From NCBI GenBank assembly GCA_963663475.2, contig CAXXJV010000001.1, positions 2,510,578 to 2,574,577 on the forward strand: a stretch of 64,000 nt of DNA, read 5' to 3'. The stretch comes from Candidatus Cloacimonadales bacterium (GTDB lineage Bacteria > Cloacimonadota > Cloacimonadia > Cloacimonadales > JAFGVF01). This document shows, piece by piece, positions 1 through 26,487 of the stretch. Position 1 is the first letter of the stretch. Every line of letters begins with the position of its first letter. The notes beneath the pieces were generated by a model. It was not told the DNA's origin and did no database searches. It was given only the letters and a program-made list of their open reading frames with translations. The translations under genes were made by a program, and so were the position numbers.

Positions 1-3000
1 ATCTAGGTGTGATTATCCAGTCATCATTCTGTCCTTCTGTAGAAGCAAATGATGTTAAGAATTTATCTCCACTTTGAGGAATCATATCTTCAATAGGTGG
101 AGTAGTTGCTGAAGGATTAAAGACCATATAAGACATTGCTGAACCAGCATTATCATAATCAACATTACTAATAGTATAAGTATTTCCACCATCTATATCA
201 TGCTGAATCCAACCAGGTAAGTTAAGGGTAAAGTCTTCATGATCATCAAAATCATCTCCCCATAATGGTTCACCAATATTATAGTAGATAATAATAGCAG
301 TATTTGATGGTAGGGAGAAACCTTCAGGATCTTCATACATACCAACAACATGATAGTGGTATTCTGTACCTACAACCACATTAGCATCATGGTAGAGATT
401 AGTTCCAATTGGGATCATTTCTTCAGTAATAACTTCACCATCTCTATAAATATGATAACCTGTTAGGTATCTTTCATAAGGAGGTTCAACCCAGGTTAAT
501 GCAACATAACCAGATTGATTAGAAGCTTCTAAGTTTAGAGGTGAATTGAAATCATAGTTATAATTAGCATCAACATAGAGATTATACAATCCTGTATCTT
601 CTCTAGTTAATCTTTCATTTTCTCCATTCTCATTCTTTCTTGTGTGTGGAGGTGTTGCACCTTGAGGGTAAACATTAGATTTGGCTACTCTAAGGTAGTA
701 GTTACCACTTTGAGGTAGAACAAATTCAATATTTGAGCCATTATCAAGATAAACAGCTGGGTCAATTTCACTAGCATCGTTAGCTGGACCATAAAGCCAC
801 ATAGAAGGATTTACATCTGAGCCACCAGCATCTTCTACTGAGCAAAGTAGAGTATCACTAATACCCATTGCAGGGATTAGATACCAATCAATATCACCAA
901 TAGGCATAATAGCATAAGTATCACCATCAACAGGAAGAGTTAATGTAACAGCATCTTCCGGAACATCATTATTATCATCAGCATAAGCGTAACCAGAAAT
1001 AACAACTTCATGAGTAACTCTAGTTGCATCATCAACTATTTGGATGGTAGCAGACTTCGTTCCTTCTGAGTTAGGAGTGAAAGCTACACCAATAGTAGCA
1101 ATATTATTGAAAGGTAATACTAAAGGATAAGTATTATTATCTGTTGTTATTGTAAATTGATCTGCATCATCTCCACCTAAAGTTGGAGCATTAGCAATTG
1201 TTACATCTTGGAGACCAATAGATCTCATAGTAATAGTCTTTTCAACTGAATTACCATCTACAGGAGTCATCTCAAATAGACTATTAGTAGGATAAACTGT
1301 TAAATCTGGAGCATCAGGAATATCACCAAATTCAAGTTTTATATTAGCAAAGGCATCTCTAATATAATTTGCACTTGGTGGTGCGACAGGATCAGGATTT
1401 GTGGAATCGCTATAATAAATAATACCTCGAGTGGAGTTAGAAGGGGTACAATAGAAGTCATTATCACTTGAATGATAACCAGGGGTATCTTCTTCAACAG
1501 CAACTACAAGGTTTTGGGTATTATCATAGACGAATGGAATATCTAATTCAAATTCAATCCAACCATCTTCTGCTGGGGCATTTAGAGTACCAGTATAAAC
1601 TTGCATAAACTCACCAATATCAATCCAGTCTTCATTATTAGCAAATTCATTCATATCTGTATGAGCCATGTATATTTTGAAATCATCTGGACCAAAAGCC
1701 CCAGTTCCATTATAATGCCAGGAAATTTTTTCAATACGAGAATCAGTAATTCCTATCTCATTAGCATAATAGATTACTTGCGAATAGGTATAGCCATAAT
1801 ATGGTTCAATTGGCATATTCAAATTCGTAGCAGTACCTGTACCAATAACAGCGATATTATCAGGTAATGCCGGTAATATAAAAGCATCTGTATATATAGT
1901 TATTGATTCATTATTAGTATCATTAGAAGTAACAGTAAATGAACCAGAATAATCTCCTTCAGCAATTGGGTTTAAACTAACATCTATGATTTCACTAGTT
2001 TCAGGTTCGATTGTAAGAGTTGTTGGATTGAAAGTAAGTTCAGTACCTGTAGAAGAAAGTTGGATTTCTAAATCACTTACACCCCAGTTTTCTACAGTGA
2101 GGTTACTTACGCCTGTCCTGTTCAAATAAACATCTCCGAAGTGAAGAGTGTCTTGGATAACTACTATAGCAGGACCAGTAGGAATATATTCAATAAAGAA
2201 ATTATCTATATATTGGGTAACATAAGTACCACCTGTTCCTAAATATTTAAGAACAATAAAACTAGCATTTTCATCAACACCAGCAAAATTTTGTACATAC
2301 TGTTGCCAATCTGAACTAAAGGTAATAGTATCAATTGCAGTGAAATTTAACTCACCAACATTGTTATGAGCTACACCAACAACAATCTGTCCACCATCAG
2401 TAGATGATTTCCCCATAAAACGAATACGTTTTGTAGTAAGGTCGTCTATAGGTGGAGTAATAGCATAGAGGTCAGGGTTTGTAGCATCAGCATTGTATAA
2501 TCTTAACGTAGATGGACTTTCATAACCACCGTAAGTATTTACTCCAACAGCAGAATATGTTGCAGCGTTTTCTATTACTGAAGCCCAATCTTGAGGAAGT
2601 TGTCCAATTTCGACATCTTCAAAACCTTCAAAATGAGGGAAATCATAAATCATAGCATCATAGCCAGAACCAGTAAGTGGTATCACTGTATCACCGTTTT
2701 CTGCATCATTAATAGTAATGTTAGCAGTAAAATCTCCCACACTTTGTGGATTAAAAGCAACAGAAAAATGTCCAACATTATCTGTAATTTCTAAAGGGTA
2801 AGTATTATCATCTGTAAAGATGAAATCACTTGTTTGGTCAATAGTTACGCTATTAATTGTTAAAGTTCCTAAACCAGTATTTCTCATTGAGAAAGTTGTA
2901 GCATTTGTGACAGTATTTATTATTGTATCATCCCAGTTATATTCTTCAGGGGTTATCATCAACTGAGGAGTAGTTGGTATATCACCCATTGTAAGAAGAA

Positions 3001-4411
3001 TGTTTGCTATAAATGCTTGAGTAGTTCCAGTTGGAGGGGAAATAAAACCATAATTAGTTACATCATTATAGTGGTAAATACTTTTATTTCCATTCGTTGA
3101 AGTAGCATGAAACTCGTCGCTTGATGAAGTATAACCTTGTGTATTAGCTTCAAAAGCAATAACTAAATTGTCATTATTGTTATAATTAAAAGGTATGGTT
3201 AAAGCTAGTGTAACCCATCCCTCTTCAGCTGGAACTGATAAAGGGCCATCATAACACAAGACAAAATCATTAATATCAAGCCAAGAATCACCATCCGCAA
3301 AGGCGTCTATTTGAGTATGACCTAAATATAATTGCACATTATCTTCTGTCCAAGCGCTATTACCATTATAATAGAAAGATACTTGTTCTATTCTTTGGTC
3401 TTCAATATTTAACCATTCTTGATCATAGATCATTTGTGTAAGTGAATAACCATAAAAAGGTTCCATAGGCAGGTGTGTATTTGCCTCTGTTCCGTTACCA
3501 ATAACAATTGATCCCTCTTCTGCACTTGTAGCAAATGACCAGATTGGAGAAGGTGTAGTGAATTCAATCAAGTTATTTCCTGCTTCAATTCTCCAATAAT
3601 AAGTTGTTAAGGGATTTAGATCATCAGTAGTTATTGTTTGCTGGGTATATTCTTCTGAGATTAGGGCTGCTTCTGTCATATCACTAACATCAGTATATAC
3701 ATCACTTAAATAAACGTTAACCCAATCAGTATTAACTCCATTTGTCCAAGTTAGTTCAACAGGAGATGATTGATTGAAAGAACCATTAGCAGGACTTGCT
3801 AATGTTGGGAGTCCTGGTTCATTTTCTGAAAGGTAATGGAATCTAGTATTTGGGAATACAGGAGATAACTGACCGTCTGCAGCAGGAAATGTTCCATCAG
3901 AATAACTAAAACAAGCCATTTCAGGTGAAGCTGAAGTAGCTGTAAAAATTGGTTGTGAAGATGCATAAGATCCATCATTATTAATAACTAAAACTTCTAA
4001 GTTATCACTACCATTGTAAGTAAAAGTTTGATCAAAAATTATATCAAACCAGCCTGTTCCATTATAAGTTAAAGTACCACTGAAAACTTCAGTATATGTT
4101 TCATCAGTAGTAGGATCAATATATGTTGGATTTACGAAGTTTTCCTCGGTAGTATTTTTTAAATAGAAAGTCTGGTTAAGCATCTCATAGTTGCTAGGTG
4201 TGTTGTTTACATGATAAGAAAGTTTGTTAATTTCCATCTCATTCTCTAAATCTGCGGCAGGATAAATAGTCCGTGACCAACCGTAATCATACCAGCCATA
4301 TGCTGGGATATAACTAGAGGTCTCATTTCCATCACCAACCTGTACAAAGACTGCATTTAAGGACATTATCAAGGTTAATAATGTTAAAACAACAATCATT
4401 TTCTTTTGCAT
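1..4411 (-). CDS. Large secreted multidomain surface/adhesin-like protein; N-terminal >=1470 codons, with the 3' end running off the left window edge (not in supplied ORF track)
   Basis: Own minus-strand translation. GGAG lies 5 nt upstream of the ATG at 4411-4409, followed by signal peptide MQKKMIVVLTLLTLIMSLNAVFVQ. Frame spot-checked stop-free at 1-120, 2041-2100, 3001-3060 and 4261-4411; it ends ...FASTEGQNDDWIITPR at base 2. Contains three copies of a module with G(N/T)GT-x7-P(M/I)EP(F/Y)YGY..Q.IY. Also has Ig-like choice-of-anchor-D-type segments, a DIDWY pre-peptidase-C-terminal-like segment and an FN3-like segment. Confidence 0.8.
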   Translation of the reverse strand, partial: MQKKMIVVLTLLTLIMSLNAVFVQVGDGNETSSYIPAYGWYDYGWSRTIYPAADLENEMEINKLSYHVNNTPSNYEMLNQTFYLKNTTEENFVNPTYIDPTTDETYTEVFSGTLTYNGTGWFDIIFDQTFTYNGSDNLEVLVINNDGSYASSQPIFTATSASPEMACFSYSDGTFPAADGQLSPVFPNTRFHYLSENEPGLPTLASPANGSFNQSSPVELTWTNGVNTDWVNVYLSDVYTDVSDMTEAALISEEYTQQTITTDDLNPLTTYYWRIEAGNNLIEFTTPSPIWSFATSAEEGSIVIGNGTEANTHLPMEPFYGYSLTQMIYDQEWLNIEDQRIEQVSFYYNGNSAWTEDNVQLYLGHTQIDAFADGDSWLDINDFVLCYDGPLSVPAEEGWVTLALTIPFNYNNNDNLVIAFEANTQGYTSSSDEFHATSTNGNKSIYHYNDVTNYGFISPPTGTTQAFIANILLTMGDIPTTPQLMITPEEYNWDDTIINTVTNATTFSMRNTGLGTLTINSVTIDQTSDFIFTDDNTYPLEITDNVGHFSVAFNPQSVGDFTANITINDAENGDTVIPLTGSGYDAMIYDFPHFEGFEDVEIGQLPQDWASVIENAATYSAVGVNTYGGYESPSTLRLYNADATNPDLYAITPPIDDLTTKRIRFMGKSSTDGGQIVVGVAHNNVGELNFTAIDTITFSSDWQQYVQNFAGVDENASFIVLKYLGTGGTYVTQYIDNFFIEYIPTGPAIVVIQDTLHFGDVYLNRTGVSNLTVENWGVSDLEIQLSSTGTELTFNPTTLTIEPETSEIIDVSLNPIAEGDYSGSFTVTSNDTNNESITIYTDAFILPALPDNIAVIGTGTATNLNMPIEPYYGYTYSQVIYYANEIGITDSRIEKISWHYNGTGAFGPDDFKIYMAHTDMNEFANNEDWIDIGEFMQVYTGTLNAPAEDGWIEFELDIPFVYDNTQNLVVAVEEDTPGYHSSDNDFYCTPSNSTRGIIYYSDSTNPDPVAPPSANYIRDAFANIKLEFGDIPDAPDLTVYPTNSLFEMTPVDGNSVEKTITMRSIGLQDVTIANAPTLGGDDADQFTITTDNNTYPLVLPFNNIATIGVAFTPNSEGTKSATIQIVDDATRVTHEVVISGYAYADDNNDVPEDAVTLTLPVDGDTYAIMPIGDIDWYLIPAMGISDTLLCSVEDAGGSDVNPSMWLYGPANDASEIDPAVYLDNGSNIEFVLPQSGNYYLRVAKSNVYPQGATPPHTRKNENGENERLTREDTGLYNLYVDANYNYDFNSPLNLEASNQSGYVALTWVEPPYERYLTGYHIYRDGEVITEEMIPIGTNLYHDANVVVGTEYHYHVVGMYEDPEGFSLPSNTAIIIYYNIGEPLWGDDFDDHEDFTLNLPGWIQHDIDGGNTYTISNVDYDNAGSAMSYMVFNPSATTPPIEDMIPQSGDKFLTSFASTEGQNDDWIITPR

Positions 4412-4921
4412 AGTCACTCCTTAATCGTGTTTAATAAATTCCTTAATTTTGGATTGTGCTCAATATACTTGATAACAAGTATCTATTTGCTATGGTGGTA
4501 GCAAATTCTTTTAATACAAATCAAAGAAAGCATATTATTTTTTTCTTGGCAAGTATTATTTTTAATTTTTCTTAATATTTTAACTTTTTGCGATAATTAA
4601 ATCTATCTTAACAGTGTTAATATCTTTTCCACTATTAATTTTTTATATTGTTAACTTAATATTTCTTAGTAGTGAAATTCTTGATTATTAGTTTCAGTTT
4701 ATTAATTCCTACTTTTACCAATTAAGCCACCAATAGATGTTTTTTGCTTGGATAAATTTTTATTAATTGTATCAAATTTTCAACAGTTCATTTACTCCCC
4801 CCGCCTAACGGCAAGCCTCTCATACCCCTCTAATGAGCAGAAAGGGGAATTAGATTCTCACACCAAGGCACGAAGAAGATAAGGAAGAATATTTTTAACA
4901 AAAATTATTTGGGATTTAACG

Positions 4922-5030: not shown

Positions 5031-5107
5031 TGGTAGCGAGAGGAGGATTTGAACCTCCGGCCTTCGGGTTATGAGCCCGACGAGCTACCAAACTGCTCCA
5101 TCTCGCG
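5031..5107 (-). tRNA. tRNA-fMet (initiator, anticodon CAT), copy 1
   Basis: Hand-folded cloverleaf of the reverse complement: cgcgaga / tcggg-ctcataa-cccga / ggagg-ttcaaat-cctcc / tctcgct-a-cca. Three G:C pairs close the anticodon stem and C1/U72 is unpaired (initiator hallmarks). CCA is encoded. Confidence 0.9.
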
Positions 5108-5118
5108 ACAATAAAAAA

Positions 5119-5195
5119 TGGGGTGGCTGATGGGGCTCGAACCCACGACGCCAGGAACCACAATCCTGTGCTCTACCAACTGAACTACAGCCACC
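5119..5195 (-). tRNA. tRNA-His (GTG)
   Basis: Cloverleaf with extra G-1 opposite C73. Anticodon arm cagga-ttgtggt-tcctg, T arm gtggg-ttcgagc-cccat, encoded CCA. Confidence 0.9.
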
Positions 5196-5235
5196 ATATT
5201 TAAGGTAAAATGTGTGTTTTATAATTTTAAAAGAA

Positions 5236-5312
<77 letters not shown>

Positions 5313-5321
5313 ACATTAAAA

Positions 5322-5398
5322 TGGTAGCGGCACAGGGACTCGAACCCCGGACACTCGGATTATGATTCCGATGCTCTAACCAACTGAGCTATGCCGCC
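5322..5398 (-). tRNA. tRNA with CAT anticodon (elongator Met, or Ile2 if lysidine-modified)
   Basis: Cloverleaf ggcggca / tcgga-atcataa-tccga / cgggg-ttcgagt-ccctg / tgccgct-a-cca. It lacks the GGG/CCC initiator signature. Met versus Ile2 cannot be separated by eye. Confidence 0.8.
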
Positions 5399-5405
5399 AT
5401 TTTTA

Positions 5406-5482
5406 TGGTAGCGAGAGGAGGATTTGAACCTCCGGCCTTCGGGTTATGAGCCCGACGAGCTACCAAACTGCTCCATCTCGCG
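5406..5482 (-). tRNA. tRNA-fMet (initiator, CAT), copy 2
   Basis: 77 nt identical to 5031-5107. Confidence 0.9.
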
Positions 5483-5595
5483 TCAAGTTTTATCAATTTA
5501 TAAAATAGTGTTTTTCTGTCAAGTAAAATTTTCATTTATTTGATTTTCACTTATCAATCAGGAAAGATTGATTAACACTAACACACTATATAGAA

Positions 5596-5672
5596 TGGCA
5601 CGCCCAAGAGGAGTCGAACCCCTAACCTTCTGATCCGTAGTCAGACACTCTATCCAATTGAGCTATGGGCGC
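5596..5672 (-). tRNA. tRNA-Arg (ACG)
   Basis: Cloverleaf gcgccca / tctga-ctacgga-tcaga / agggg-ttcgact-cctct / tgggcgt-g-cca. Confidence 0.9.
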
Positions 5673-5674
5673 AC

Positions 5675-6262
5675 ATCGTTTTTGCATAAAAAAACTAGGG
5701 GGTTTTATGTCAAGCATATTTTTTAACTTTTTTTAGTGATACTTAGCTATCATATTGATTAATTGAAGGTTAATAAGTCTTTTTATTTTTTATATTCTCC
5801 TTATAGGCTAGCATCTTATTCTTCTTTAATTGTTAGTCTCCCTGAAAAAATGGGATTTTTACAGGAAAAAGTATAAAAGTATAAAGTGACACCCAAGTTT
5901 TCCATCTGCAAAAACGATCCATATATCTCATAAAATCCCACACATTAAACTCTTACACCTATTTTCAATCGTTTTTTCAAAATTTCCAATTTAACTGCTT
6001 TCACAGGAAACTTTATCGTTTGATTTATACTTTTAAAGTAGTTTTGTGGTTGTAAAGAACACCATTAATAACCTTAAACATCTAATAAATAAAGAATTAG
6101 TCTATTTTGTAGTTTTAAGGCAATTGAAAAAAATCGTTTTTACGCTTTTTTCTCACTGCAAAAACGATTCGGTTTCTCACATTTGATAAAAAAGCGTAAA
6201 AACGATTTTGAAGAAGTGACAGAGTTTTTTCATTATTGATAAAAAACCGTAAAAACGATTTT
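5675..6262. repeat. Iteron-like field: seven copies of (G/T)nAAAAACGAT on both strands, including a 27-nt direct repeat
   Basis: Core AAAAACGAT (or its complement) occurs at 5675-5685(-), 5908-5918(+), 5968-5978(-), 6133-6145(-), 6158-6168(+), 6194-6206(+) and 6247-6259(+). TTGATAAAAAA(G/C)CGTAAAAACGATTTT at 6183-6209 and 6236-6262 is 26/27 identical. 6129-6151 is the inverted copy of 6187-6209. Confidence 0.75.
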
Positions 6263-6287: not shown

Positions 6288-8156
6288 TTATTTTTGAAAA
6301 GTAACGTCCAAACTCGCTCCGTATAAATTCTTTTCGATTATTCTGTATCGACATTTAGATTCTATAGTTTTGCTTAGAACAGTTTTCAGTTCTTTCTTAG
6401 CTGTAGAAACTCTTTTATTCTTGCTCTTGCAGCTTTTAGTTTCTAGCAATCTAATTTTTAACGAATCATTTTTTAGTTCTATGATTATTGAATCAATATC
6501 TGTTATGCAAGATTCACTTGGTTTCTTTCTGAAGTCATAAATATTTATTCTCGAGTTATATATCAGAGCAAATCCTTCAAAGTTTCTTAGTGTATTCTTT
6601 AAATGATTAACTTCATGTTTCCTGCCTTTGTCTGAGATACCTTCTTGGTGCCTGTCCAAGTCTTCCTTAATCAATTCAAAATTATCATGAGGTGTTTTGA
6701 TATAAAATTTTTGGTGATCTATTTCTTGTACTTCACTCAATCTATAATCATCTTTAAATATGAATTTCAGTATTGCCCAAAATAGATTTTCATAAGATGG
6801 TATTAGATCTTTATCTAAAACTTTGAATAAAATATACTTATGGGCATTTGTATCTGTTTTAAAGATATTATTTAACTTTTCACTTGGTATGCCATTTTGT
6901 TTTGCTCTTTGTTTGAGCTCATTAAACATAACATTATGAATCATTTTTGGGTTAGATACTTGCAATTCACTTTCTTTTAATAACATATTACATATATTAA
7001 AATTGATAGTAACAAAACTTGAAGAAGTAAACTTTTCTGTAAAAAAAATATCTGCTGATCTAGCATTTGTAATCGGATTGTGATCTAAATACGTTTCTAT
7101 GCCAACGCAGTGCTTTCTTAATATTGATATTCTTCTAACTTCATCATAAAAATTAATTCTTGATCTGTGGACTGGTAATTTGAATCTAACATAAGGAATA
7201 TAAGATTTTATTTCTTTAGTAACTAATCCTGTTTGAATAGCATCTCTGATAATTTCTTTATATTGTGATGCTTGTTTCTTCTTAACATCAATAATTTTCA
7301 ATGACTCAATTTCATAAGATTTTTGTAGTGCACAAACTTCTGGATCATGATAAATTGAATCATATAGTTCATTTACAAAAGGATTTAAACTACTATTAAT
7401 ATTCAATTTAACAACTCTATCGGAATTATTTAAAGAGTTAATGAATGAAAAAATATCAGCATTAAATGGTATATGCGAATAGTGTGCATCTATTGAGATA
7501 ATTGATAATTTTCGTATAATTCCATAAACATCCGTTAATTGTTGAAGTTTATGAATATTTAACTTGCAAGAGTTAGAACTTAGCAACATTTTAAACAAAA
7601 ACCTAATACTTTGCTTCATTTCTGTACTCAAAGAAGAGTTTCTATCTAGTCTATGCAAAGAAATTAAAAAATGAAACTTTGAAACATCGAAATTATTAAT
7701 TATGACATTGGCAATTTCTTCAAGCTCATTATCTAAATTACATAAGAAAATTGATTTAAATCCTTTTAACTTTTTTGCAAACTTTAACAATGATCGTTCA
7801 TCTGCATATGTATTCTTAGTGTGCCCAAAATTTGACAGCATAAACCAACTTTTAAGAATACTGTTACCTGTATATTCTTGACCGTTAACTTTGATACTTC
7901 CTAGGGAAAAACTCGAGCCTTTATGAATATTATCAAATAAATCAACCATAGCACACTGTAACATCAGATATTCATACCTGCTATGGGATGCTCCATCAAA
8001 TGTTTTTTCAATCAACCCCAAATGCTTAATTCTTTTCTGTCTATCAAACTCTTTTTCAGTTTCATACAATGAATAAACACTTCGAGCAATATCATAAAAT
8101 TTTATAGAGACTAGTCCAAAACTAGGGATAGCTACCTTATGAATAATTGAGGACAA
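6288..8156 (-). CDS. Orphan 622-aa protein: degenerate HD-phosphohydrolase-like N-terminal region plus PD-(D/E)xK nuclease-like C-terminal region (candidate defence effector)
   Basis: Long ORF with a TTG start 6 nt after GGAG, which sits directly behind the stop of the S24 gene (12-nt gap). FDRQKRIKHLGL..GASHSRYEYLMLQ and WFMLSNFGHTKNTYADE resemble the SAMHD1/COG1078 signature with the metal ligands replaced. The C-terminus ITDIDSIIIEL..LKIRLLETKS gives a D...ExK arrangement. Confidence 0.7.
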   Translation of the reverse strand: MSSIIHKVAIPSFGLVSIKFYDIARSVYSLYETEKEFDRQKRIKHLGLIEKTFDGASHSRYEYLMLQCAMVDLFDNIHKGSSFSLGSIKVNGQEYTGNSILKSWFMLSNFGHTKNTYADERSLLKFAKKLKGFKSIFLCNLDNELEEIANVIINNFDVSKFHFLISLHRLDRNSSLSTEMKQSIRFLFKMLLSSNSCKLNIHKLQQLTDVYGIIRKLSIISIDAHYSHIPFNADIFSFINSLNNSDRVVKLNINSSLNPFVNELYDSIYHDPEVCALQKSYEIESLKIIDVKKKQASQYKEIIRDAIQTGLVTKEIKSYIPYVRFKLPVHRSRINFYDEVRRISILRKHCVGIETYLDHNPITNARSADIFFTEKFTSSSFVTINFNICNMLLKESELQVSNPKMIHNVMFNELKQRAKQNGIPSEKLNNIFKTDTNAHKYILFKVLDKDLIPSYENLFWAILKFIFKDDYRLSEVQEIDHQKFYIKTPHDNFELIKEDLDRHQEGISDKGRKHEVNHLKNTLRNFEGFALIYNSRINIYDFRKKPSESCITDIDSIIIELKNDSLKIRLLETKSCKSKNKRVSTAKKELKTVLSKTIESKCRYRIIEKNLYGASLDVTFQK

Positions 8157-8168
8157 ACATTTCTCCTT

Positions 8169-8753
8169 TTAAATAACCCTAAACAGAAAGACCATCTCAC
8201 CTAAGATCCTGAAGGTCTCAAGTTCAAAGTCTTCTATTATTATTACATCAAAATCTGGATTAAGTGGTTTAAGTATAACCCTCTTCTTCTCTTTATCAAA
8301 TTGTAGTTTTTTTAAAGTAGCACCTTCAGGTGTATGACAAGCACATACTTTACCATTCAAACTTGGTATATCTATGTTCTCTCTTATAACAACAACATCT
8401 CCATGAGCAATTATTGGGAACATACTGTTTCCATTAACCTTGAGAGCTATATACTTGTTCTCTTGATCTGACAAATAAGCTTTTGGTATCTCTATATACT
8501 TTGATGGAGCATCATCATAACCATTCATTGGAGTACCTGCAGCAATCTCTCCATATATAGGTAGAGTTATAACCCTTGAATCGAAAGGGTTGAGTTTATG
8601 TTTATATACTGAGTTATTTCCTGTCATCTCTTCTATATTCTTTTTATGACCATCTCCATAGAGATTTCCATCAGAATCTAAAACAAACATTCCACCTTTA
8701 CCAGTTAATAACCAATTTAAGTTTAAACCATAGCGTTCGTTGATACGAGCCAT
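8169..8753 (-). CDS. S24 (LexA/CI-type) self-cleaving peptidase domain ORF; C-terminal part of a frameshifted XRE-HTH/S24 repressor
   Basis: Ala-Gly cleavage site (GEIAAGTPM), catalytic Ser (VNGNSMFP) and Lys (GATLKKL). The N-terminus starts inside the end of an HTH (YGLNLNWLLTGKG). The missing HTH lies upstream in another frame (8770-8895). Confidence 0.8.
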   Translation of the reverse strand: MARINERYGLNLNWLLTGKGGMFVLDSDGNLYGDGHKKNIEEMTGNNSVYKHKLNPFDSRVITLPIYGEIAAGTPMNGYDDAPSKYIEIPKAYLSDQENKYIALKVNGNSMFPIIAHGDVVVIRENIDIPSLNGKVCACHTPEGATLKKLQFDKEKKRVILKPLNPDFDVIIIEDFELETFRILGEMVFLFRVI

Positions 8754-8769
8754 GGCTGTTGCTGGAGGT

Positions 8770-8895
8770 TTACTTGTTTTTTCTGTTCAACCAATCTGAT
8801 AGATTACCTGATGTGACCTCAATAGTATTCGTAAACTCGGAACGCTTTATATCAAGAGCATTTACGAACATTAACAGCCTATCTTTTATATCCAT
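8770..8895 (-). pseudogene. XRE-type HTH fragment (41 codons), separated by one frameshift from the S24 domain ORF
   Basis: AGGAG-N6-ATG; MDIKDRLLMFVNALDIKRSEFTNTIEVTSGNLSDWLNRKNK*. Removing one A from the A6 run (forward T6 at 8777-8782) fuses it to ..KTSKPPATAMARINERYGLNLNWLLTGKG. Confidence 0.7.
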
Positions 8896-8930
8896 TTAAT
8901 CTCCTATCTTTTATATCCATTTAATCTCCT
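8881..8930 (-). repeat. Perfect 25-bp tandem duplication covering RBS, ATG and the first five codons of the repressor gene (plus a degenerate third unit to ~8950)
   Basis: atcttttatatccatttaatctcct appears twice (8881-8905, 8906-8930). On the coding strand this reads AGGAGATTAAATGGATATAAAAGAT x2. Confidence 0.9.
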
Positions 8931-8949
8931 ATCTTATATATCATTCCAT

Positions 8950-9052
8950 TTCGCATTGTTGCACACTGATGCGTTGGACTGAAACTTTTCCTTGACTACT
9001 TTCGCATATTTTGCTTTATAGATTTAGTAATCATTATTTGCAACATTGCGAA
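8950..9052. promoter_or_regulatory. Three operator-like sites in the divergent repressor / Cro-like intergenic region
   Basis: TTCGCATTGTTGCA (8950-8963,+), TTCGCATATTTTGC (9001-9014,+) and TTCGCAATGTTGCA (reverse complement of 9039-9052). The core GCAA-NN-TTGC is palindromic. Confidence 0.55.
8992..9020 (+). promoter_or_regulatory. Candidate sigma70 promoter of the Cro-like gene
   Basis: TTGACT(8992-8997)-N17-TTTATA(9015-9020). The spacer is occupied by operator-like site 9001-9014. Confidence 0.4.
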
Positions 9053-9081
9053 CAATGTCAATAAAAATTTAGGAGGTTCGA

Positions 9082-9324
9082 ATGAGATCACCATATCATC
9101 CTGCTGTAATAAGATCAGCTATGACGCTTAAAAGACTCACAACAAAGGCATTAGCCGAACGCTTATTCATCTCCAGAAGATCATTAGATTATTTTATTAA
9201 TGAAGGAATACATATAAGAAAAGCAGAAGATGTCTTAGAAATTCTTCAACCTGAGCTTGATGAGATAAGTGAAATTTATCGCAAACACACTAACATAGAA
9301 GTCGAGAGTTGCGAAAAGAGGTAA
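9082..9324 (+). CDS. Small HTH DNA-binding protein (Cro/excisionase-like), divergent from the S24 repressor
   Basis: AGGAGG RBS 6 nt upstream. Helix-turn-helix-like LTTKALAERLFISRRSLDYFINEG. Confidence 0.6.
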   Translation: MRSPYHPAVIRSAMTLKRLTTKALAERLFISRRSLDYFINEGIHIRKAEDVLEILQPELDEISEIYRKHTNIEVESCEKR

Positions 9325-9385: not shown

Positions 9386-9646
9386 ATGAGTTATGTAGGA
9401 TTAAAAAATTTAAATACAATCCTGATGGTCGCAGTTGATATAATATACTCTGCTATAAAATATTTAGATGAGCTATTATACTTATACCCAGAATTTGGAA
9501 ATTTGAAAGAACAGACATATAAATATGTATATTATAAGCTTAGCAGAGTCATAAAACATATATTCAGCAATACAAAACTTAACAAGATTTTACCCTGCAA
9601 AGGTGAATATCATGACAAGTTACAGCTGAAGATCAATTTTTCTTAA
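9386..9646 (+). CDS. Hypothetical 86-aa protein
   Basis: ORF only; chained to upstream ORFs through TAATG overlaps. No recognisable motif. Confidence 0.35.
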   Translation: MSYVGLKNLNTILMVAVDIIYSAIKYLDELLYLYPEFGNLKEQTYKYVYYKLSRVIKHIFSNTKLNKILPCKGEYHDKLQLKINFS

Positions 9647-9810: not shown

Positions 9811-11427
9811 ATGAGAAAATTTGTACTATTAATTCTATTGTTGCTGACCGCAATTCTACAACTATACGCAGACAACGAACTAGAACCTTGGATTACCCTT
9901 AGTGGAGAGTGGGCTCCATCCTGGTTTGGGAAACACATGGCAGTATTAGACTTTAATGCAGATGGTATAGATGACTTAATCGTTTATCATATTGGAGAAT
10001 ATGGTGTTTATCATGGAGCTTTAAATATCTACTTTGGTGGAAGTAATTTCGGTAATGAACCTGATATGGTAATAGAAGGAGATCATGTTGGTCATTTAAG
10101 AGAAGGTGTCTTCTACTGCGGAGATGTTAATGGTGATGGCTATGATGATTTTATAAGTCATGCTTTTGTTCATAGTGATGGTGTTGGAGACCCGAATGAT
10201 TACGCCTTTCGCTACTACTTTGGTGGACCCAATCCTGATATTGAAGTTGATCAAGAATTTTCATATAGTGATAATGATCAAGATTGGTATGGGATAAGAA
10301 CCTGTTTAGGAGATGTTAATAATGATGGTTATGATGATATTGGGCTTAAAAGATTTGAGGGTAATGGTTATCCTTTAAAGATATTACTTGGTAATACGCT
10401 TGAACTTGTGGAAATTATTCCTGCTGAAGAGTCAACTCTTTTTTTCCCTAATATTGAACCTATGGGAGATATCAACAATGATGGTATAGCTGATTTCTCA
10501 GTTGGTTATGGATATGAAGCACATGGTACGGAACATCAACATACAAGAATATTCTATGGAGGAGAAGATTTTACAACTAGTTTTATTGACTACAAACACT
10601 ATGTTAATTCCGAATACATGTTTAAAGGGGCAAAGACTATTGGTGATTTTAATGGGGATGGATTAAATGATTTTCTTTTTCCAGTACCAAATAATGCGTC
10701 AAACGACTATTATGCCTTAGCCATACGAGCTGACGAGATACTAGAGTCAGATGAACTTCATGTAGAACAATTTTATTATGACCAACCTTTACTAGACGCT
10801 TCTAGACCTATGTCCTACACTATAGGTTACGGAGACTTTAATGGTGATGGTTTTAGTGATTTTGTTGGTTCTAATATGGAATATGCTATAGATGATGGAG
10901 CTGCCGGAATCTGGTTTGGCAGGGCAACCCCAAACGGAGATTGTGATATTAGATTAAATAGTCCAACTGTAGTTCATCAATTTGGCTACAAAGTTAAAGT
11001 TGGAGATTTTAATGGTGATGGATTGGATGATATTGCTATCTCTTCTCCTCACCGAGCAGGTTCTTTAGAAGATGGATTTAATGGAGAAGTTTATATTTAT
11101 AAAGGATCAGTTGATTTAGCTGATACGGCTGTAGCTAATAGTGACCAAGAAGTTGAAGAAAATCATGGTATAAGATTAAATATCTACCCGAATCCTTCTA
11201 AATCTAGTATGGATATTAAGTACACTATTAAAGGTTCCTTAAGTAGAGATATTTCGGGTACACAGCTAATTATCTACAACATTAAAGGTCAAAAAATTTA
11301 TTCAACAAGTATTAATAGTAAAGATAACACAATTAGCATACCTCAAGTCCCATCAGGATGTTACATTGCTGAAATTAAAGAAAACAATAAAGTCTTGGCT
11401 TCTAGTAAGTTTAATTTAATAAAATAA
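9811..11427 (+). CDS. Secreted FG-GAP/VCBS-repeat protein with T9SS-type C-terminal sorting domain
   Basis: AAGGAG RBS and signal peptide. Repeated GD(V/F/I)NGDG(Y/L/F)(D/S)D motifs. C-terminal LNIYPNPSKSSMDIKY..IYNIKGQKIY. Confidence 0.8.
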   Translation: MRKFVLLILLLLTAILQLYADNELEPWITLSGEWAPSWFGKHMAVLDFNADGIDDLIVYHIGEYGVYHGALNIYFGGSNFGNEPDMVIEGDHVGHLREGVFYCGDVNGDGYDDFISHAFVHSDGVGDPNDYAFRYYFGGPNPDIEVDQEFSYSDNDQDWYGIRTCLGDVNNDGYDDIGLKRFEGNGYPLKILLGNTLELVEIIPAEESTLFFPNIEPMGDINNDGIADFSVGYGYEAHGTEHQHTRIFYGGEDFTTSFIDYKHYVNSEYMFKGAKTIGDFNGDGLNDFLFPVPNNASNDYYALAIRADEILESDELHVEQFYYDQPLLDASRPMSYTIGYGDFNGDGFSDFVGSNMEYAIDDGAAGIWFGRATPNGDCDIRLNSPTVVHQFGYKVKVGDFNGDGLDDIAISSPHRAGSLEDGFNGEVYIYKGSVDLADTAVANSDQEVEENHGIRLNIYPNPSKSSMDIKYTIKGSLSRDISGTQLIIYNIKGQKIYSTSINSKDNTISIPQVPSGCYIAEIKENNKVLASSKFNLIK

Positions 11428-11437
11428 GGAGTAAAAA

Positions 11438-14400
11438 ATGAAAAGGTTATTTGTAACAGTATCACTTGCAATATTTGTTTTAAGTTGTTGGTCATCAATT
11501 AGAGATGATTTCCTTATTGGTAATTATGGCTACATTCATCCAGCTTATGGAGAAACTTCATATACTAGATTGTTCACTTTAATGCAAGAAGCCAACTATA
11601 ATTCATCAATTTGTTCGCCGGTAAAACTTACCCAGTATCCATGGGGAGATTTGAGTACAATGTTAAGTAAAATGGAGCAATGCGATTTAACTCCAATTCT
11701 TTATGATAATTATACTAATTATTCCAATGGTGTGATAAATGAAATAAGCCCAAGAAATCTTTCCATGGGTATATATGCAAAATTCGAAGCTGAGTTTGAT
11801 AGTAGAGAAGATAACAATATTCCTGAAAGTGATAGGCATATAGAAGAGAATAATGACATTTACCATTATCATTTTGATATTGATAGAATTGGGGCTATAA
11901 ATCAAGCATTCGGAAGAAGATTCCTGTTTTGTTCACCTACTACAATGACAGAAGATGTTATTGTTGATAATTTAAGGCATAGGTGGAAAAATCACAAAAA
12001 TGGTGTTGATGGAGATTTTATTGATAATGCTGATTATTTACCTTACAAGGAAGCATTTGAATTCTCTAATGGTAGTGATGAATTAAATTATATCCAGTAC
12101 AATAAGTTATATATGACAGTTTGTTATAAGGTTAGTTCAGACACCTCTTCTGCTTTAAAATTTGGTCTAAAGTTACTTAACATTGATGCCAACGATAATG
12201 AAGAGTGGTATTTTAAAGAGATTAGAAATACCATGAATAATGATTATGGAAACGTGTTGACCTATACAGCACAGGAACTTAATGACCCTGCAATAACATA
12301 TGTAGACACATTGGAATTTTCAGATTTTAGGAAGATAACTTTCGAGTTAGAATTGTCTAGTTTGTTGGATGGAGAAATTAATAGTCGAGACAATGATGAT
12401 AGTAGATCATATCTATATAACTTTCATAGCAGAAAAAGATTAAATGGCATAACCCCATACATATACTGGGAAGGTAATCATGATGTTAGAATCGATTATA
12501 TTGAGTTTGAAGATGACGTACATAAACAAATTGTGGATGGCGTGGCACTTGATGCTTTAGAAAATAGATTAAATAAATACTCCTCAGTACATAATCACTA
12601 TACTGTAGATGAGCCCAAGTTTACTCACTTTGATTCTCATAAATTGATAGATGAAAGACTTAATAATTATAACATAATCACAACTAATTGGCCAATAAAT
12701 TTTAAAGAGAAAAAACCAAATAATACTAGATATTTTCATCCAGGGCAATTTGTAGAACAAGCCCAACCTGATGATTTAATGATAGATTTTTATCCACTAA
12801 AACCTGACGCTAATTGGAATAATATTGATGATGATAATTTTGTTCAATTCCTAATAGATTGGTGGGCTTGTGCAAACTATAGAAGAGCAAAACATAAAGC
12901 TGAAGATAGACCATTTTATGTTGTGCCTTGTACTGCTGGTAAATGGGATAATCGTTTTAATATATGGGTAGGATATCAATATCCGACGATCAACATGATT
13001 AAATGTCTGCAATATTTACCTCTCTGTTATGGGGTTGATGGAATAATAGATTTTCCATTTTATAAAGATACTACATTTAATGATAATGACCCTGAAGATA
13101 ATGGTCATCGCTGGTATGCCCTAGTTAATGATGATGATAATGATTCCATTCATCCTAATGGACGGCATATTACACCACAATACTATGCAATAAAAGAAGC
13201 CAATGAAAAAGTATATAGATATGGAAATATTCTTAAAGATTTAACATGGCTAGATGCTACTACTATTAAAGCAAATGGTATTCAAGCTCTAGATTCTGAA
13301 ATCTATATTATTGGTCAAAATCAGGAAGAAGGTGAAGATAAACCCCTTAATAATAGTATCTATAAATACTTCCCAACTGGAGGAATAAAAACTTCTAGTA
13401 TTGGGAATAATAATGATAGAGACACCTATAATGGCTACATTCACATCGGATTGTTTGAAGACGAATATGGTCATCAGAAGTATATGCTTGTGAATAGGCG
13501 TACTGATTTTGTTGAAGATAGTAGTGGCTTAATGAATACTTTAAACCCTGATATATTAACTTCAAGATATGAAGATCAAGTATCATTTTTCCAAGCTTCT
13601 CCTCAATGTGTAAATTTTGATTTAGATTATGCAACTGAGGATTTTAATAATTCATTCGGTTCTCATGTTGCCCTATATGATCCTTATTCAAAAGAAATTT
13701 ATCGACCTAACTCAGAAAATGTAATAAGTGTTGAACTTAAACCTGGAGAGGGTAAAATGTTAGAATTTGTAAATTATCTATCTGGGGATATAACGATTTC
13801 ACCTTTGCCATATTTAGATGGACATTATGTGATAGGTGACACGTTAAATATTGATGATAATGTTAGTCTATCATTTTCTCCTGAGTCAAGAGTATGTATA
13901 AAAGATAGTACAATAATTAATATCTGCAAAAATGCAAAGCTATCATTAAGTGGAAGTGTAGAAATAAATAGTACCATAAATGCTGATTCTTTAGCAACAC
14001 TTGAATTACTTAATACTTATAAATGTTTATTAGGAGATGGAGTTAAGTTAAATGCCAATAACGGAACAATTATAATTGAAAACTCTTCACTAGAAGCTAT
14101 AACAGATAAATGGGGCGGTCTATATTCTGATAATTTAGCAAATTTAAATAGTTGTATTATAATTAAAAATAGTGAGTTAAAACAATTTAGTAATCTTAGT
14201 ATGCACAATGGATTTCTGACTATTCTTGATGATAGTAATCTGTATTTTACTCAAAGGTATACTGTTCTTAAAAATGTTACAACTAACATCCATAATTCAA
14301 TATTAAACTTTGAACACAATGGATTTCGTTATTTTAACTCAAATTTGGAAGGAAACATATATATAACTAACACACAATTTAATGGTTCTTCAAATCTGAA

Positions 14401-16075
14401 AGCCATTGAACTTTCAGGTTCTGTTTTAGGTCTTGTAGTTTTAGATGGTGTAACCTTTAACAACTTTAATAAAGGAATAAATATTGTGAGTTTTAATAAT
14501 TCACCCTCATATTTTGAAAATATAGTGATTGCTGATTGTGAATTTAACAATTGCGATAGTGGAATATTGCTCACCGATTCACCTTCTTTTGGACAAATCA
14601 ATATAAACACAACTGCATTTAACAATATTGATGATGAAGGAATTGGAGTATATATATTCAATACTAATACAAGCGTCAATATAGATAGCTGTTCATTTTC
14701 TGGTAATGGTACAGGAATATCTACTACTGGTATATCTCCATTTATTTCTAATTCCATATTTTCTAATTTAACAGTAGGTGTTAAAGAAGAATTAACAATT
14801 TCAAATACTGTAGCTAAGATAAAAGATTGTACTTTTAGGTATTGTGATACTGGATTTGAAGGTAGAGAATCCACAACAAGATTGGAAGAGAATACTTTTC
14901 AAGAAAATATAACAGGTATCAAATCTCTAACAAATTCAGTTTTAGATATTTCTTATAATGCTTATAATATTTTTGATAATTCGATTAGAAATTTATATTT
15001 TCCAACAGATGAACCCAATGACTATTTAATAAAGTGTTTAAAAGGGCATAACGATTTCTACCATAGATTTTCTCCACCAAATACACTAGCAAATGATTTT
15101 GATTTTACTGTACCTATTATGAATAGGATTGGTATAGATGCAAGTTATAATTGGTTCTCAACTTCTACAGTGAGAGTTGCACCAGCATCAATGTCTAATT
15201 ATGTTTCGGTTAATGAATTCGATCCTGTCTCAAATTCTTTTTACCCACCTTCTATAACACCCGATAGATTTTATGAAGCCCTATGTGAAGAAAATAGTGG
15301 TTATAACTTAGAAGCATATCTAATATATAAATTAATTTTAGATGAAGCTATACCAACTGAGAGTAGTCTCTGGGCTAGTTGTGTTGATGGTATTTATAGA
15401 AACTCTTATATTATTGGTATTGATATTTTAGAAGTTGATAGCTATATGGAAGATAAAGTAGAACAATTTTCATCTATTGATAACTCCTTATCAGAAATGA
15501 TTGACAACTATATAATGAGAGTTCATTTACTTTACAAGAATTACAATGAGGTTATAACTATTCTCGAGAATAGAATTAATTGTCCAACTTCTGAAATTGA
15601 CTCTCTTAGTGCTGTACTTGATTTAGAGATAGTACTAAAATTGGCTAACGCTTCGCAAGGTAAATCTGAGGTTAATACAACTTTTGCTCAATATAAATAT
15701 AAGACATTTGAGAAGTTCGAAGAAGAACATGCAAAGCATTGGGACATATATAATGATATGACAAAAGATGATGAATCAGATTATAATGTTCTTCCTCCTA
15801 ACAAGCTTAATCTATCTAACTACCCAAATCCTTTTAATCCTGAAACGACTATCATGTTTGGTTTACCTGAAGATAGTGACATAGAGATAAAGATATACAA
15901 TCTAAAAGGACAAGTTGTTAAAAAACTTGTAAAAGATCACTTTAAAGCAGGCTATCATGCTGTTGTTTGGAATGGTAAGAATGATAGTAATCAAAAAGTT
16001 GCTTCTGGTGTTTATCTAACAAGAATAACTTCTAAAGAGAAAACTAAAACTAAAAAGATAATGCTTATGAAATAG
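11438..16075 (+). CDS. 1545-aa secreted protein: unknown N-terminal half, parallel beta-helix-like repeat region, T9SS-type/FlgD-Ig-like C-terminal domain
   Basis: AAGGAG RBS and signal peptide. Asn/Ile/Ser-rich ~22-aa periodic region at about aa 800-1180. C-terminal NYPNPFNPETTIMFGL..IKIYNLKGQVV..WNGKNDSNQKVASGVYL. Confidence 0.8.
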   Translation: MKRLFVTVSLAIFVLSCWSSIRDDFLIGNYGYIHPAYGETSYTRLFTLMQEANYNSSICSPVKLTQYPWGDLSTMLSKMEQCDLTPILYDNYTNYSNGVINEISPRNLSMGIYAKFEAEFDSREDNNIPESDRHIEENNDIYHYHFDIDRIGAINQAFGRRFLFCSPTTMTEDVIVDNLRHRWKNHKNGVDGDFIDNADYLPYKEAFEFSNGSDELNYIQYNKLYMTVCYKVSSDTSSALKFGLKLLNIDANDNEEWYFKEIRNTMNNDYGNVLTYTAQELNDPAITYVDTLEFSDFRKITFELELSSLLDGEINSRDNDDSRSYLYNFHSRKRLNGITPYIYWEGNHDVRIDYIEFEDDVHKQIVDGVALDALENRLNKYSSVHNHYTVDEPKFTHFDSHKLIDERLNNYNIITTNWPINFKEKKPNNTRYFHPGQFVEQAQPDDLMIDFYPLKPDANWNNIDDDNFVQFLIDWWACANYRRAKHKAEDRPFYVVPCTAGKWDNRFNIWVGYQYPTINMIKCLQYLPLCYGVDGIIDFPFYKDTTFNDNDPEDNGHRWYALVNDDDNDSIHPNGRHITPQYYAIKEANEKVYRYGNILKDLTWLDATTIKANGIQALDSEIYIIGQNQEEGEDKPLNNSIYKYFPTGGIKTSSIGNNNDRDTYNGYIHIGLFEDEYGHQKYMLVNRRTDFVEDSSGLMNTLNPDILTSRYEDQVSFFQASPQCVNFDLDYATEDFNNSFGSHVALYDPYSKEIYRPNSENVISVELKPGEGKMLEFVNYLSGDITISPLPYLDGHYVIGDTLNIDDNVSLSFSPESRVCIKDSTIINICKNAKLSLSGSVEINSTINADSLATLELLNTYKCLLGDGVKLNANNGTIIIENSSLEAITDKWGGLYSDNLANLNSCIIIKNSELKQFSNLSMHNGFLTILDDSNLYFTQRYTVLKNVTTNIHNSILNFEHNGFRYFNSNLEGNIYITNTQFNGSSNLKAIELSGSVLGLVVLDGVTFNNFNKGINIVSFNNSPSYFENIVIADCEFNNCDSGILLTDSPSFGQININTTAFNNIDDEGIGVYIFNTNTSVNIDSCSFSGNGTGISTTGISPFISNSIFSNLTVGVKEELTISNTVAKIKDCTFRYCDTGFEGRESTTRLEENTFQENITGIKSLTNSVLDISYNAYNIFDNSIRNLYFPTDEPNDYLIKCLKGHNDFYHRFSPPNTLANDFDFTVPIMNRIGIDASYNWFSTSTVRVAPASMSNYVSVNEFDPVSNSFYPPSITPDRFYEALCEENSGYNLEAYLIYKLILDEAIPTESSLWASCVDGIYRNSYIIGIDILEVDSYMEDKVEQFSSIDNSLSEMIDNYIMRVHLLYKNYNEVITILENRINCPTSEIDSLSAVLDLEIVLKLANASQGKSEVNTTFAQYKYKTFEKFEEEHAKHWDIYNDMTKDDESDYNVLPPNKLNLSNYPNPFNPETTIMFGLPEDSDIEIKIYNLKGQVVKKLVKDHFKAGYHAVVWNGKNDSNQKVASGVYLTRITSKEKTKTKKIMLMK

Positions 16076-26122: not shown

Positions 26123-26476
26123 TTAAACATAATCGTAGAACAGGCTTTTGATAGCCCTGTATAATTTATTAATATCAAAATCATACATCATCAGGAGAAT
26201 TGTGAAAATTACTAAAGCAACAAAAAGAATAACCCAGAGAAAATTAGCATAAAGCATATGAATGCTAGCCCAAAAATGAACTTTAGGTACAGAGACAGAA
26301 TTACTATTATTCTTATCTATCTTATCGTAAATTACCTGAGATTCCGTTCCCCACATAATCTCATTTTCAGGATCTTCATCATCGATATAAGGTATATACC
26401 CCATCTTGTTATACCTATCCAGTAAATTCTTAGGTATTGTTGCAATTTCATTATCAGTAAGCATTCTTTTAGCCAT
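26123..26476 (-). CDS. 117-aa membrane protein co-transcribed with the second XRE/S24 repressor
   Basis: 11-nt gap with GGAG RBS after the repressor stop. One C-terminal TM segment, FLWVILFVALVIFTILLMM. Confidence 0.5.
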   Translation of the reverse strand: MAKRMLTDNEIATIPKNLLDRYNKMGYIPYIDDEDPENEIMWGTESQVIYDKIDKNNSNSVSVPKVHFWASIHMLYANFLWVILFVALVIFTILLMMYDFDINKLYRAIKSLFYDYV

Positions 26477-26487
26477 ATAAGCTCCTT

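Follow-up and report, generated by a model that had tools for sequence, protein, structure and literature searches.

A SAMHD1-like fold without its metal site, joined to a nuclease-like domain, in a widespread and unannotated bacterial protein family

What might a bacterium do with a protein that retains the fold of a deoxynucleoside triphosphate (dNTP) hydrolase but has replaced the metal ligands, and that ends in a domain resembling a nuclease? This question is raised by a 622-amino-acid protein encoded in a 64,000-nucleotide stretch of a Candidatus Cloacimonadales bacterium genome (contig CAXXJV010000001.1, positions 2,510,578 to 2,574,577; this whole stretch is referred to as the window). 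An initial annotation, made from the DNA alone, had described the protein as an orphan and a candidate defence effector. Homology searches indicate that the gene is a member of a widespread, unnamed bacterial family. There is strong support for the N-terminal module being a SAMHD1/EF1143-type HD fold without metal ligands, while the C-terminal domain has the conserved residues of a predicted nuclease. We regard the structural and evolutionary finding – a pseudo-dNTPase in a large unannotated family – as solid, and the gene as a plausible new candidate for a single-gene defence system.

6288..8156, minus strand: complete gene, 622 amino acids, TTG start, TAA stop (translation of the open reading frame and 28 full-length homologues)

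The open reading frame (ORF) begins at a TTG codon that matches the N-termini of the 28 full-length homologues, and all of the N-terminal and C-terminal strings quoted in the initial annotation are present in its translation.

A widespread and unannotated family

The protein is not an orphan. A 90%-cluster database contained 28 relatives with 31–37% identity over 96–100% of the query, all of them labelled ‘hypothetical’ or unnamed. An exhaustive HMMER scan of 1.84 billion representatives of 50%-identity clusters identified 402, 225 and 51 representatives at E<=1e-3, 1e-10 and 1e-30, respectively. We therefore rejected the orphan status given in the initial annotation – the 28 relatives and the 225 representatives at E<=1e-10 describe a large family that is merely un-annotated. 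Among the 150 matches listed, most relatives are 590–640 amino acids long. The hosts include Gamma- and Betaproteobacteria, Bacteroidota and Bacillota, and the distribution is patchy: patterns drawn from close relatives matched only 9 of 185,579 GTDB species representatives.

Annotation resources proved blind to the family. The window protein belongs to no Pfam, NCBIfam, PADLOC or PHROGs family, and no family was found when 79 diverse relatives were compared with Pfam and five relatives with NCBIfam. A phmmer search of PDB with the single window protein returned nothing. A tblastn search of 50,697 phage genomes gave no match to the family, nor did scanning IMG/VR with a narrow alignment reveal a close relative. 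The initial annotation had also stated that this is no described defence family, and this held: there was no PADLOC 2023 match, and in the searchable literature we found neither a described fusion of a SAMHD1-like domain to a nuclease nor a pseudo-HD defence protein. The fusion partners of dGTPases recorded in a 2026 survey are CARD, death, TIR, SIR2, NLR and SAM domains; neither nuclease fusions nor inactive forms appear there.

A SAMHD1-like domain that has lost its metal ligands

The N-terminal three quarters of the protein contain the following features.

6747..8156, minus strand: SAMHD1/EF1143-like HD-fold domain, approximately residues 1–470, HD metal site absent (AlphaFold2 and Foldseek)
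7956..8057, minus strand: equivalent of HD motif I, residues 34–67, EKEFDRQKRIKHLG...GASHSRYEY, with Y63 for the metal-ligand His and H58 and R60 kept (profile-to-PDB alignments and hhalign)
7794..7853, minus strand: equivalent of HD motif II, residues 102–121, KSWFMLSNFGHTKNTYADER, with S108-N109 for the H-D dyad and G111-H112 kept (alignment to LLHDLGHPPFSH of 2hek)
7467..7514, minus strand: residues 215–230, with R215 conserved in 109/110 and D223 in 110/110 sequences (column counts)

The initial annotation had proposed that an HD scaffold is retained here with its metal ligands replaced (EH to EY and HD to SN). Both structure and profile comparisons find the HD fold in this part of the protein. 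An AlphaFold2 model of the window protein, computed from a 29-sequence alignment (pLDDT 86.4, pTM 0.83), gave 195 Foldseek matches to PDB at E<=0.001. The best 50 are all SAMHD1 structures or HD-domain homologues (including 9mr6 and 2hek), with E-values from 2.7e-7 to 2e-5, a probability of 1.00, 432–508 aligned columns and target-normalised TM-scores (TMt) of 0.39–0.56. Independently of the model, a 110-member family profile matched the PDB sequences 9mr6 (1.8e-6), EF1143/2o6i (1.4e-5), 2hek (4.7e-5) and 2q14 (3.8e-4). The resemblance of the HD-like motifs is well beyond what chance would give. These alignments fall on the motifs themselves, placing the family's RLkxixHLG...GAhHSRwEY over RLRxIKQLG...GAxHxRFEH and its LLsNiGH over LLHDLGH.

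Column counts confirm the replacement of the ligands across the family. At motif I, Y63 and H58 are each present in 108 of 108 sequences and R60 in 104 of 108; at motif II, N109 is present in 95, H112 in 101 and T116 in 109 of 110. The five commonest residues at position 108 are S, L, G, T and F, with no His among them, and the H-D pair is not seen among the commonest residues. In SAMHD1 numbering, which we take to follow the hhalign register, Y63 would correspond to H167, S108-N109 to H206-D207, R60 to R164, H58 to H162 and H112 to H210. In SAMHD1, R164 and H210 touch the phosphates of the substrate. Judging by its spacing, D223 probably occupies the position of the last Asp of the HD superfamily (SAMHD1 D311); it could not be mapped onto D311 because hhalign of the family profile to a SAMHD1 core sequence covered motif I only (33 columns, E 1.9e-5). 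The metal-ligand tetrad H...HD...D is thus absent, with the candidate final Asp D223 the only member left. Pfam HD models (PF01966 and relatives) gave no match to the window protein at E<=1 and none to 79 diverse members at E<=0.01.

The replacements Y63 and N109 are themselves conserved. H58, R60, H112, T116, R215 and D223 are conserved at 91–100%, and conservation along the protein peaks at residues 31–125 and 506–580. Since the ligand loss is family-wide and the replacements are conserved, the loss is best read as ancestral and the replacing residues as under selection. The family ancestor appears to have lost at least three of the four ligands that bind metal (His...His-Asp...Asp), and the conserved replacements look like the signature of a re-purposed pocket and not of decay. 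A bacterial dGTPase no longer defends once its HD motif carries the D101A substitution (Tal et al. preprint). Because the motif that defensive dGTPases require is absent here, the family should not be filed as a dNTPase.

A C-terminal domain with a PD-(D/E)xK-like site

Two features describe the remainder of the protein.

6291..6689, minus strand: C-terminal domain, approximately residues 490–622, alpha-beta-beta-beta-alpha-beta unit (domain model)
6435..6614, minus strand: candidate active-site residues, with E515 in a helix, D553/D555 in a strand and E572-x-K574 in the antiparallel strand that follows (column counts and models)

The candidate catalytic residues are close to invariant, with E515 present in 108, Asp or Glu at 553 in 103, D555 in 110, E572 in 109 and K574 in 109 of 110 sequences. 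This E/D/E/K region and the HD-like motif region are the most conserved parts of the protein. A pattern of the form (D/E)xDGhhh...hhhhEAK is typical of PD-(D/E)xK nucleases. A model of the domain built from a trimmed alignment (pLDDT 94.1) comprises, in order, two short strands, two helices, five strands, two helices and two strands. E515 lies in the second helix, and the motif elements correspond to helix 46–58 and strands 86–98 and 101–109 of the domain model – an order of secondary structure that fits the alpha-beta-beta-beta-alpha-beta core of PD-(D/E)xK enzymes.

Sub-threshold similarity points the same way. When 42 family C-terminal domains were compared singly with Pfam, 36 families were matched at E<=5. 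Five of these, HSDR_N (matched twice), Card1_endonuc (E 0.004), Endonuc_Holl (0.02), SduA_C (0.022) and RmuC (0.08), are families that we take to belong to the PD-(D/E)xK clan. That clan holds well under 1% of Pfam families, so an enrichment of five in 36 is unlikely to have arisen by chance. Taken together, the motif, the element order and these matches make the domain a likely PD-(D/E)xK-type nuclease, as the initial annotation had predicted.

Searches for the domain outside the family returned little. A C-terminal profile compared with a word-indexed database of 5.8 billion proteins found only two short unannotated proteins. A stand-alone homologue of 152 amino acids (30% identity to residues 455–575) is encoded at L017:8055-8513 on the Priestia megaterium plasmid pBMG4, directly following a gene for a DUF6602 protein, with a DEAD/DEAH helicase and an AAA ATPase near. 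The existence of this stand-alone copy shows that the C-terminal domain circulates as an independent evolutionary module.

Homologues are solitary genes in variable, often mobile surroundings

The comparison covered 26 loci with a homologue, drawn from genomes, metagenomes and a plasmid, and set 225 neighbouring ORFs all against all. There is no conserved partner gene across these loci, and the gene is solitary. The only neighbour families to recur are a tyrosine integrase (five loci), a serine recombinase (three loci) and a PDC-M01/Septu-like ATPase pair (two loci). Apart from one syntenic Methylophilaceae pair, the flanks are never alike. Recombinases lie within 6 kb of the gene in eight of the 26 loci, a count that includes a further Pfam-confirmed integrase in L001, and copies of the gene are found on two Bacillaceae plasmids.

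Known defence systems are among the neighbours. Of the five loci with a PADLOC-recognised system within 6 kb, four have it directly adjoining the gene. A Lysinibacillus copy has Avs4 (1e-165) upstream and a Ppl-like protein downstream; a Priestia koreensis copy is followed by PtuA/PtuB-like (PDC-M01) proteins and an Argonaute-associated (Aga) nuclease (7e-78); a copy on a Peribacillus megaplasmid adjoins PDC-M01 A and B (6e-185 and 8e-95); and on a metagenome contig a type IIG restriction-modification enzyme (E 0) lies 166 nt downstream. At the fifth locus a DpdB-like protein and a type II methyltransferase, with HigB and Fic, are approximately 5 kb away. ParDE adjoins a family member at another locus. 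Neighbourhoods of this kind fit an accessory gene that stands alone, moves horizontally and often ends up in defence islands, although with five of 21 informative loci the association with defence is suggestive rather than conclusive.

One further neighbour merits mention in its own right. On a metagenome contig, an 872-amino-acid ResIII helicase with a TnsA-like endonuclease domain (L022:601-3219) stops 26 nt before the family member. PADLOC does not recognise this helicase, which may represent a further defence gene absent from the catalogues.

The window copy lies behind a CI-type repressor

The window gene follows a repressor gene on the same strand and is bounded by several candidate signals.

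8169..8895, minus strand: gene for a CI-type helix-turn-helix (HTH) and S24 self-cleaving repressor, split by a 1-nt frameshift (three-frame translation, Pfam and PHROGs)
8163..8168, minus strand: Shine-Dalgarno-like AAGGAG, 6 nt upstream of the TTG and within the 12-nt spacer (direct sequence reading)
9033..9061, minus strand: closest match to a sigma-70-like promoter, TTGACA-17-AATAAT (11/12), lying upstream of both repressor and effector genes (a consensus match only, of a kind not enriched over shuffles)
6123..6209, minus strand: AT-rich hairpin ending in a U-run, terminator-like, approximately 80 nt past the stop codon (inverted repeat and RNA fold)

The coordinates and translation bear out the ORF position, the TTG start and the 12-nt coupling to the S24 ORF that the initial annotation had given: the repressor TAA is at 8169-8171 and the TTG at 8154-8156, leaving a spacer of exactly 12 nt. 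The gene has a G+C content of 27.9%, compared with a mean of 32.3% for the window (standard deviation 1.6% over segments of the same size), which places it in the lowest 1.1% of such segments; kbl-sized neighbours have 33–35%. The contrast reported by the initial annotation is therefore real, but it is smaller than the spot values then quoted (22–28% against 35–37%). Low G+C content, a patchy spread across phyla and the recombinases in eight of 26 neighbourhoods all support the earlier view that the gene was acquired horizontally.

The repressor is recognisable but broken. An HTH fragment (8770-8895, 41 codons) lies in a different frame from the S24 ORF (8169-8753), and a 1-nt shift at a run of six A residues (8777-8782) rejoins the two. 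The S24 ORF matches Pfam Peptidase_S24 (E 4.8e-21) and contains only the tail of the CI HTH, whereas the repaired 241-amino-acid repressor matches phrog_4 (transcriptional repressor) over residues 1–238 at E 5e-36, as against 5e-28 for the truncated ORF. The Ala-Gly cleavage site and the GNSM serine and lysine (Ser/Lys dyad) are kept. The frameshift could reflect an error in sequencing, a pseudogene or slippage; the downstream gene would be expressed either way – damage-inducible if the frameshift is an error, constitutive if it is real. We rejected the S24 protein as a conserved partner of the family, the linkage being found in this window only. The initial annotation's ‘prophage-type immunity operon’ thus survives as a description of a same-strand CI-type repressor 12 nt away and lacks generality: the linkage is unique, the repressor carries a frameshift and no further phage gene accompanies it. 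Specifically, the flanks of the pair within the window contain no integrase and no phage structural or replication gene, and a search for att-like direct repeats flanking the island found none that convinced.

The ribosome-binding site of the HTH fragment and its ATG lie within three tandem 25-nt repeats (100, 88 and 76% identity) at 8871-8945. A 13-codon dead-end frame opens at the first ATG there, and the repeats may be operator-like or a duplication of the 5' end.

On the other side of the gene, the arms of the terminator-like hairpin are 26 nt long and 96% complementary, and the RNA fold has a z-score of −4.9, with none of 200 shuffles folding as well. The same region, between the stop codon of the gene and a tRNA-Arg, holds an AT-rich repeat family with CGTAAAAACGATTTT (5898-6262). 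Its 26-nt inverted repeats pair 6130-6155 with 6184-6209 and 6237-6262, with more copies at 5898-5918 and 6148-6168, and one pair forms the hairpin just described. Approximately 600 nt from the gene, six tRNA genes are clustered at 5031-5672 (minus strand) – Met(CAT) three times, two copies being 97% identical, with His, Arg(TCT) and Arg(ACG) – and form the left border of a low-G+C island of roughly 3.5 kb.

A candidate sensor-effector protein and its alternatives

The interpretation we favour is that the family is a mobile, stand-alone protein in which a pseudo-dNTPase sensor is combined with a nuclease effector in an anti-phage or anti-mobile-element role, a proposal whose chances we consider evenly balanced. 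Conservation and homology suggest that module 1 (approximately residues 1–470), derived from a SAMHD1/EF1143-type dNTP triphosphohydrolase, would serve as a non-hydrolytic nucleotide- or nucleic-acid-binding sensor and as an oligomerisation scaffold. With the metal ligands lost and R60, H58 and H112 kept, it would be expected to bind a nucleotide, or the end of a nucleic acid, but not to hydrolyse what it binds. A ligand in the pseudo-active or allosteric pockets might then set the oligomeric state or conformation, as happens in SAMHD1-family enzymes. Module 2 (approximately residues 490–622) would be the effector, a Mg2+-dependent PD-(D/E)xK-type nuclease whose E/D/E/K site is thereby licensed to cut DNA. 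From the genomic context, the target would be phages or other mobile DNA, and in this genome the gene is probably co-transcribed behind a CI-type, RecA-cleavable repressor of broken frame. We know of no precedent for a dNTPase-derived pocket acting as a sensor. The more specific form of the proposal – that the pseudo-SAMHD1 module gates the fused nuclease by detecting shifts that a phage causes in the dNTP pool, or nucleotides or nucleic-acid ends that are unusual or modified, so that DNA is cut instead of nucleotides being depleted – is tentative, and we consider it rather unlikely. A parallel for its regulatory step is Clover CloA, a defence dNTPase of the same fold that is controlled by nucleotide at allosteric sites (PMC12265719).

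Several results weigh against a nuclease-based defence function. With the pLDDT-94 domain model as query, Foldseek gave no significant match in PDB (lowest E 0.16) or BFVD (lowest E 0.14), and except for negligible influenza PA fragments there was no nuclease among the top matches in these two databases. Profiles of the C-terminal domain gave only noise against PDB sequences, and an hmmsearch with the domain against the 225 neighbour proteins found none below E 0.1, though the L022 helicase has a TnsA-like endonuclease domain. The window protein matches no system model of PADLOC-DB 2.0.0 at E<=1. PADLOC-recognised systems lie within 6 kb in only five of the 21 informative loci, a raw count without a background rate, and housekeeping genes flank several of the copies (groESL, tig-clpP-clpX and the his operon). 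Linkage to a repressor is seen in the window alone, with no S24 or HTH partner recurring in 26 other loci. For the C-terminal domain, the conserved motif, the order of elements and the sub-threshold Pfam matches thus stand beside the lack of a structural match in PDB and BFVD. For the defence role put forward in the initial annotation, the known systems near the gene give circumstantial support, to be set against the PADLOC negative and the copies between housekeeping genes.

We considered three other explanations. The gene could be cargo of mobile elements with a role outside defence – an addiction or toxin module, a DNA-processing factor or an anti-defence factor – with defence genes nearby owing to shared integration hot spots. 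Recombinases near eight of the 26 loci, the two Bacillaceae plasmid copies, the toxin-antitoxin genes in some neighbourhoods and the position of the window gene beside a tRNA cluster and a CI-type repressor would all fit. However, across the 26 loci the gene has no conserved partner, antitoxin-like or otherwise, recombinases are missing from the surroundings of many copies, and the family is absent from the 50,697 phage genomes, with no close relative found in IMG/VR. In our judgement, a large regulatory domain joined to a small catalytic one is also typical of defence effectors and not of toxin-antitoxin toxins. We consider this explanation improbable.

A second possibility is that the N-terminal domain is still an enzyme, working through a re-modelled site (Tyr63, Asn109, His58, His112 and Asp223), with the C-terminal domain in a regulatory or DNA-binding role. 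The near-invariance of the substituting residues, including D223 in 110/110 sequences, argues for a functional pocket, and neither PDB nor BFVD gave a nuclease structure that significantly matches the C-terminal domain. Yet the C-terminal E/D/E/K residues are as conserved as anything in the protein, and the D101A result described above indicates that defence by a bacterial dGTPase is abolished when the HD motif is mutated. This explanation strikes us as very unlikely. To our knowledge, every hydrolase or oxygenase of the HD superfamily characterised so far retains the H...HD...D ligands, which also speaks against it.

The third, that the protein is a chromosomal repair nuclease linked to DNA damage or the nucleotide pool, with the S24 repressor marking SOS-type control of a housekeeping function, can draw on the upstream self-cleaving LexA/CI-type repressor with its Ala-Gly site and Ser/Lys dyad and on the housekeeping genes flanking some homologues, but is highly improbable given a sporadic distribution (nine of the 185,579 GTDB species representatives by close-relative patterns), flanks that differ except in one syntenic pair, an atypical G+C content and a repressor that has a Cro/CI-type HTH, is frameshifted and is linked to the gene only here.

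If the sensor-effector interpretation is correct, the SAMHD1 fold would have been used twice in prokaryotic immunity: once as a nucleotide-depleting enzyme, and once as a catalysis-free sensor coupled to a nuclease. The protein would be the first pseudo-SAMHD1 immune sensor, and would bring to defence catalogues a new family of at least approximately 225 clusters at 50% identity, spread over several phyla and invisible to Pfam, NCBIfam, PADLOC and PHROGs. A further gain would be a bacterial parallel to the nucleic-acid-binding and nuclease-associated roles that are debated for SAMHD1, together with a tractable model of the way in which the allosteric or active-site pockets of a dNTPase can be repurposed in signalling. 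Even without a defence role, a clear and well-conserved pseudo-HD domain is worth a database entry.

Comparison with known systems

The closest relatives in fold are SAMHD1, EF1143 and the anti-phage dGTPases, including Clover CloA – defence proteins, some of which are nucleotide-regulated. The family shares with them the overall fold over approximately 470–500 alignment columns, motif I (RLxxIKQLG...GAxHxRFE), the ‘LLxxxGH’ motif and an N-terminal beta-hairpin with a conserved Gly. It differs in having at least three of the four metal ligands replaced, in lacking a Pfam HD match and in carrying an extra C-terminal domain of approximately 130 residues. Since the ligands are replaced, dNTP depletion is an unlikely mechanism for the family.

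RelA-type inactive HD domains offer a precedent of a different kind, in that an HD fold without catalysis takes a regulatory or structural role in a multidomain protein. These belong to the RSH subfamily, however, and are partnered with a synthetase rather than a nuclease in a different biological process.

Other parallels are matters of design. Shedu (SduA, DUF4263) likewise joins a large, variable N-terminal module to a small C-terminal D...ExK module in a single gene with a defence-island setting, but no homology between the two is detectable: the N-terminal modules are unrelated, the window protein has no SduA_C/DUF4263 match in Pfam or PADLOC, and just one of the 42 family C-terminal domains reaches SduA_C, at E 0.022. 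In type IV and other modification-dependent restriction enzymes, a ligand-recognising domain gates a fused PD-(D/E)xK nuclease in the way proposed here; the family, by contrast, contains no known modified-base reader (SRA, EVE, YTH and others).

The initial annotation had drawn its parallel with lambda cI-rexAB. The window does resemble that arrangement, with a CI-type repressor followed 12 nt on by an effector on the same strand and small divergent ORFs on the other side. It is unlike it in that no prophage surrounds the pair, the repressor is frameshifted, the linkage is absent from 26 other loci and there is no homology to RexA or RexB. The analogy therefore describes this one locus and not the family.

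Other features of the window

The divergent ORFs just mentioned encode 80 and 86 amino acids (9082-9324 and 9386-9646, plus strand) and lie in a cro-like position relative to the repressor. Neither has Pfam or PHROG support, and their HTH character is an impression from the sequence.

Genes for very large secreted proteins flank the island. On one side, an ORF of at least 1473 amino acids (2-4420, minus strand) runs off the window; on the other are ORFs of 538 amino acids (9811-11427, plus strand) and 1545 amino acids (11438-16075, plus strand). The C-termini of the latter two resemble type IX secretion sorting domains and may be putative examples of these.

The window also contains a second, intact HTH-S24 repressor of 236 amino acids (phrog_4, E 1e-45; within 26126-27198, minus strand). 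It overlaps by 1 nt a 122-amino-acid ORF that has no Pfam or PHROG match, making another pair of a repressor and unknown cargo.

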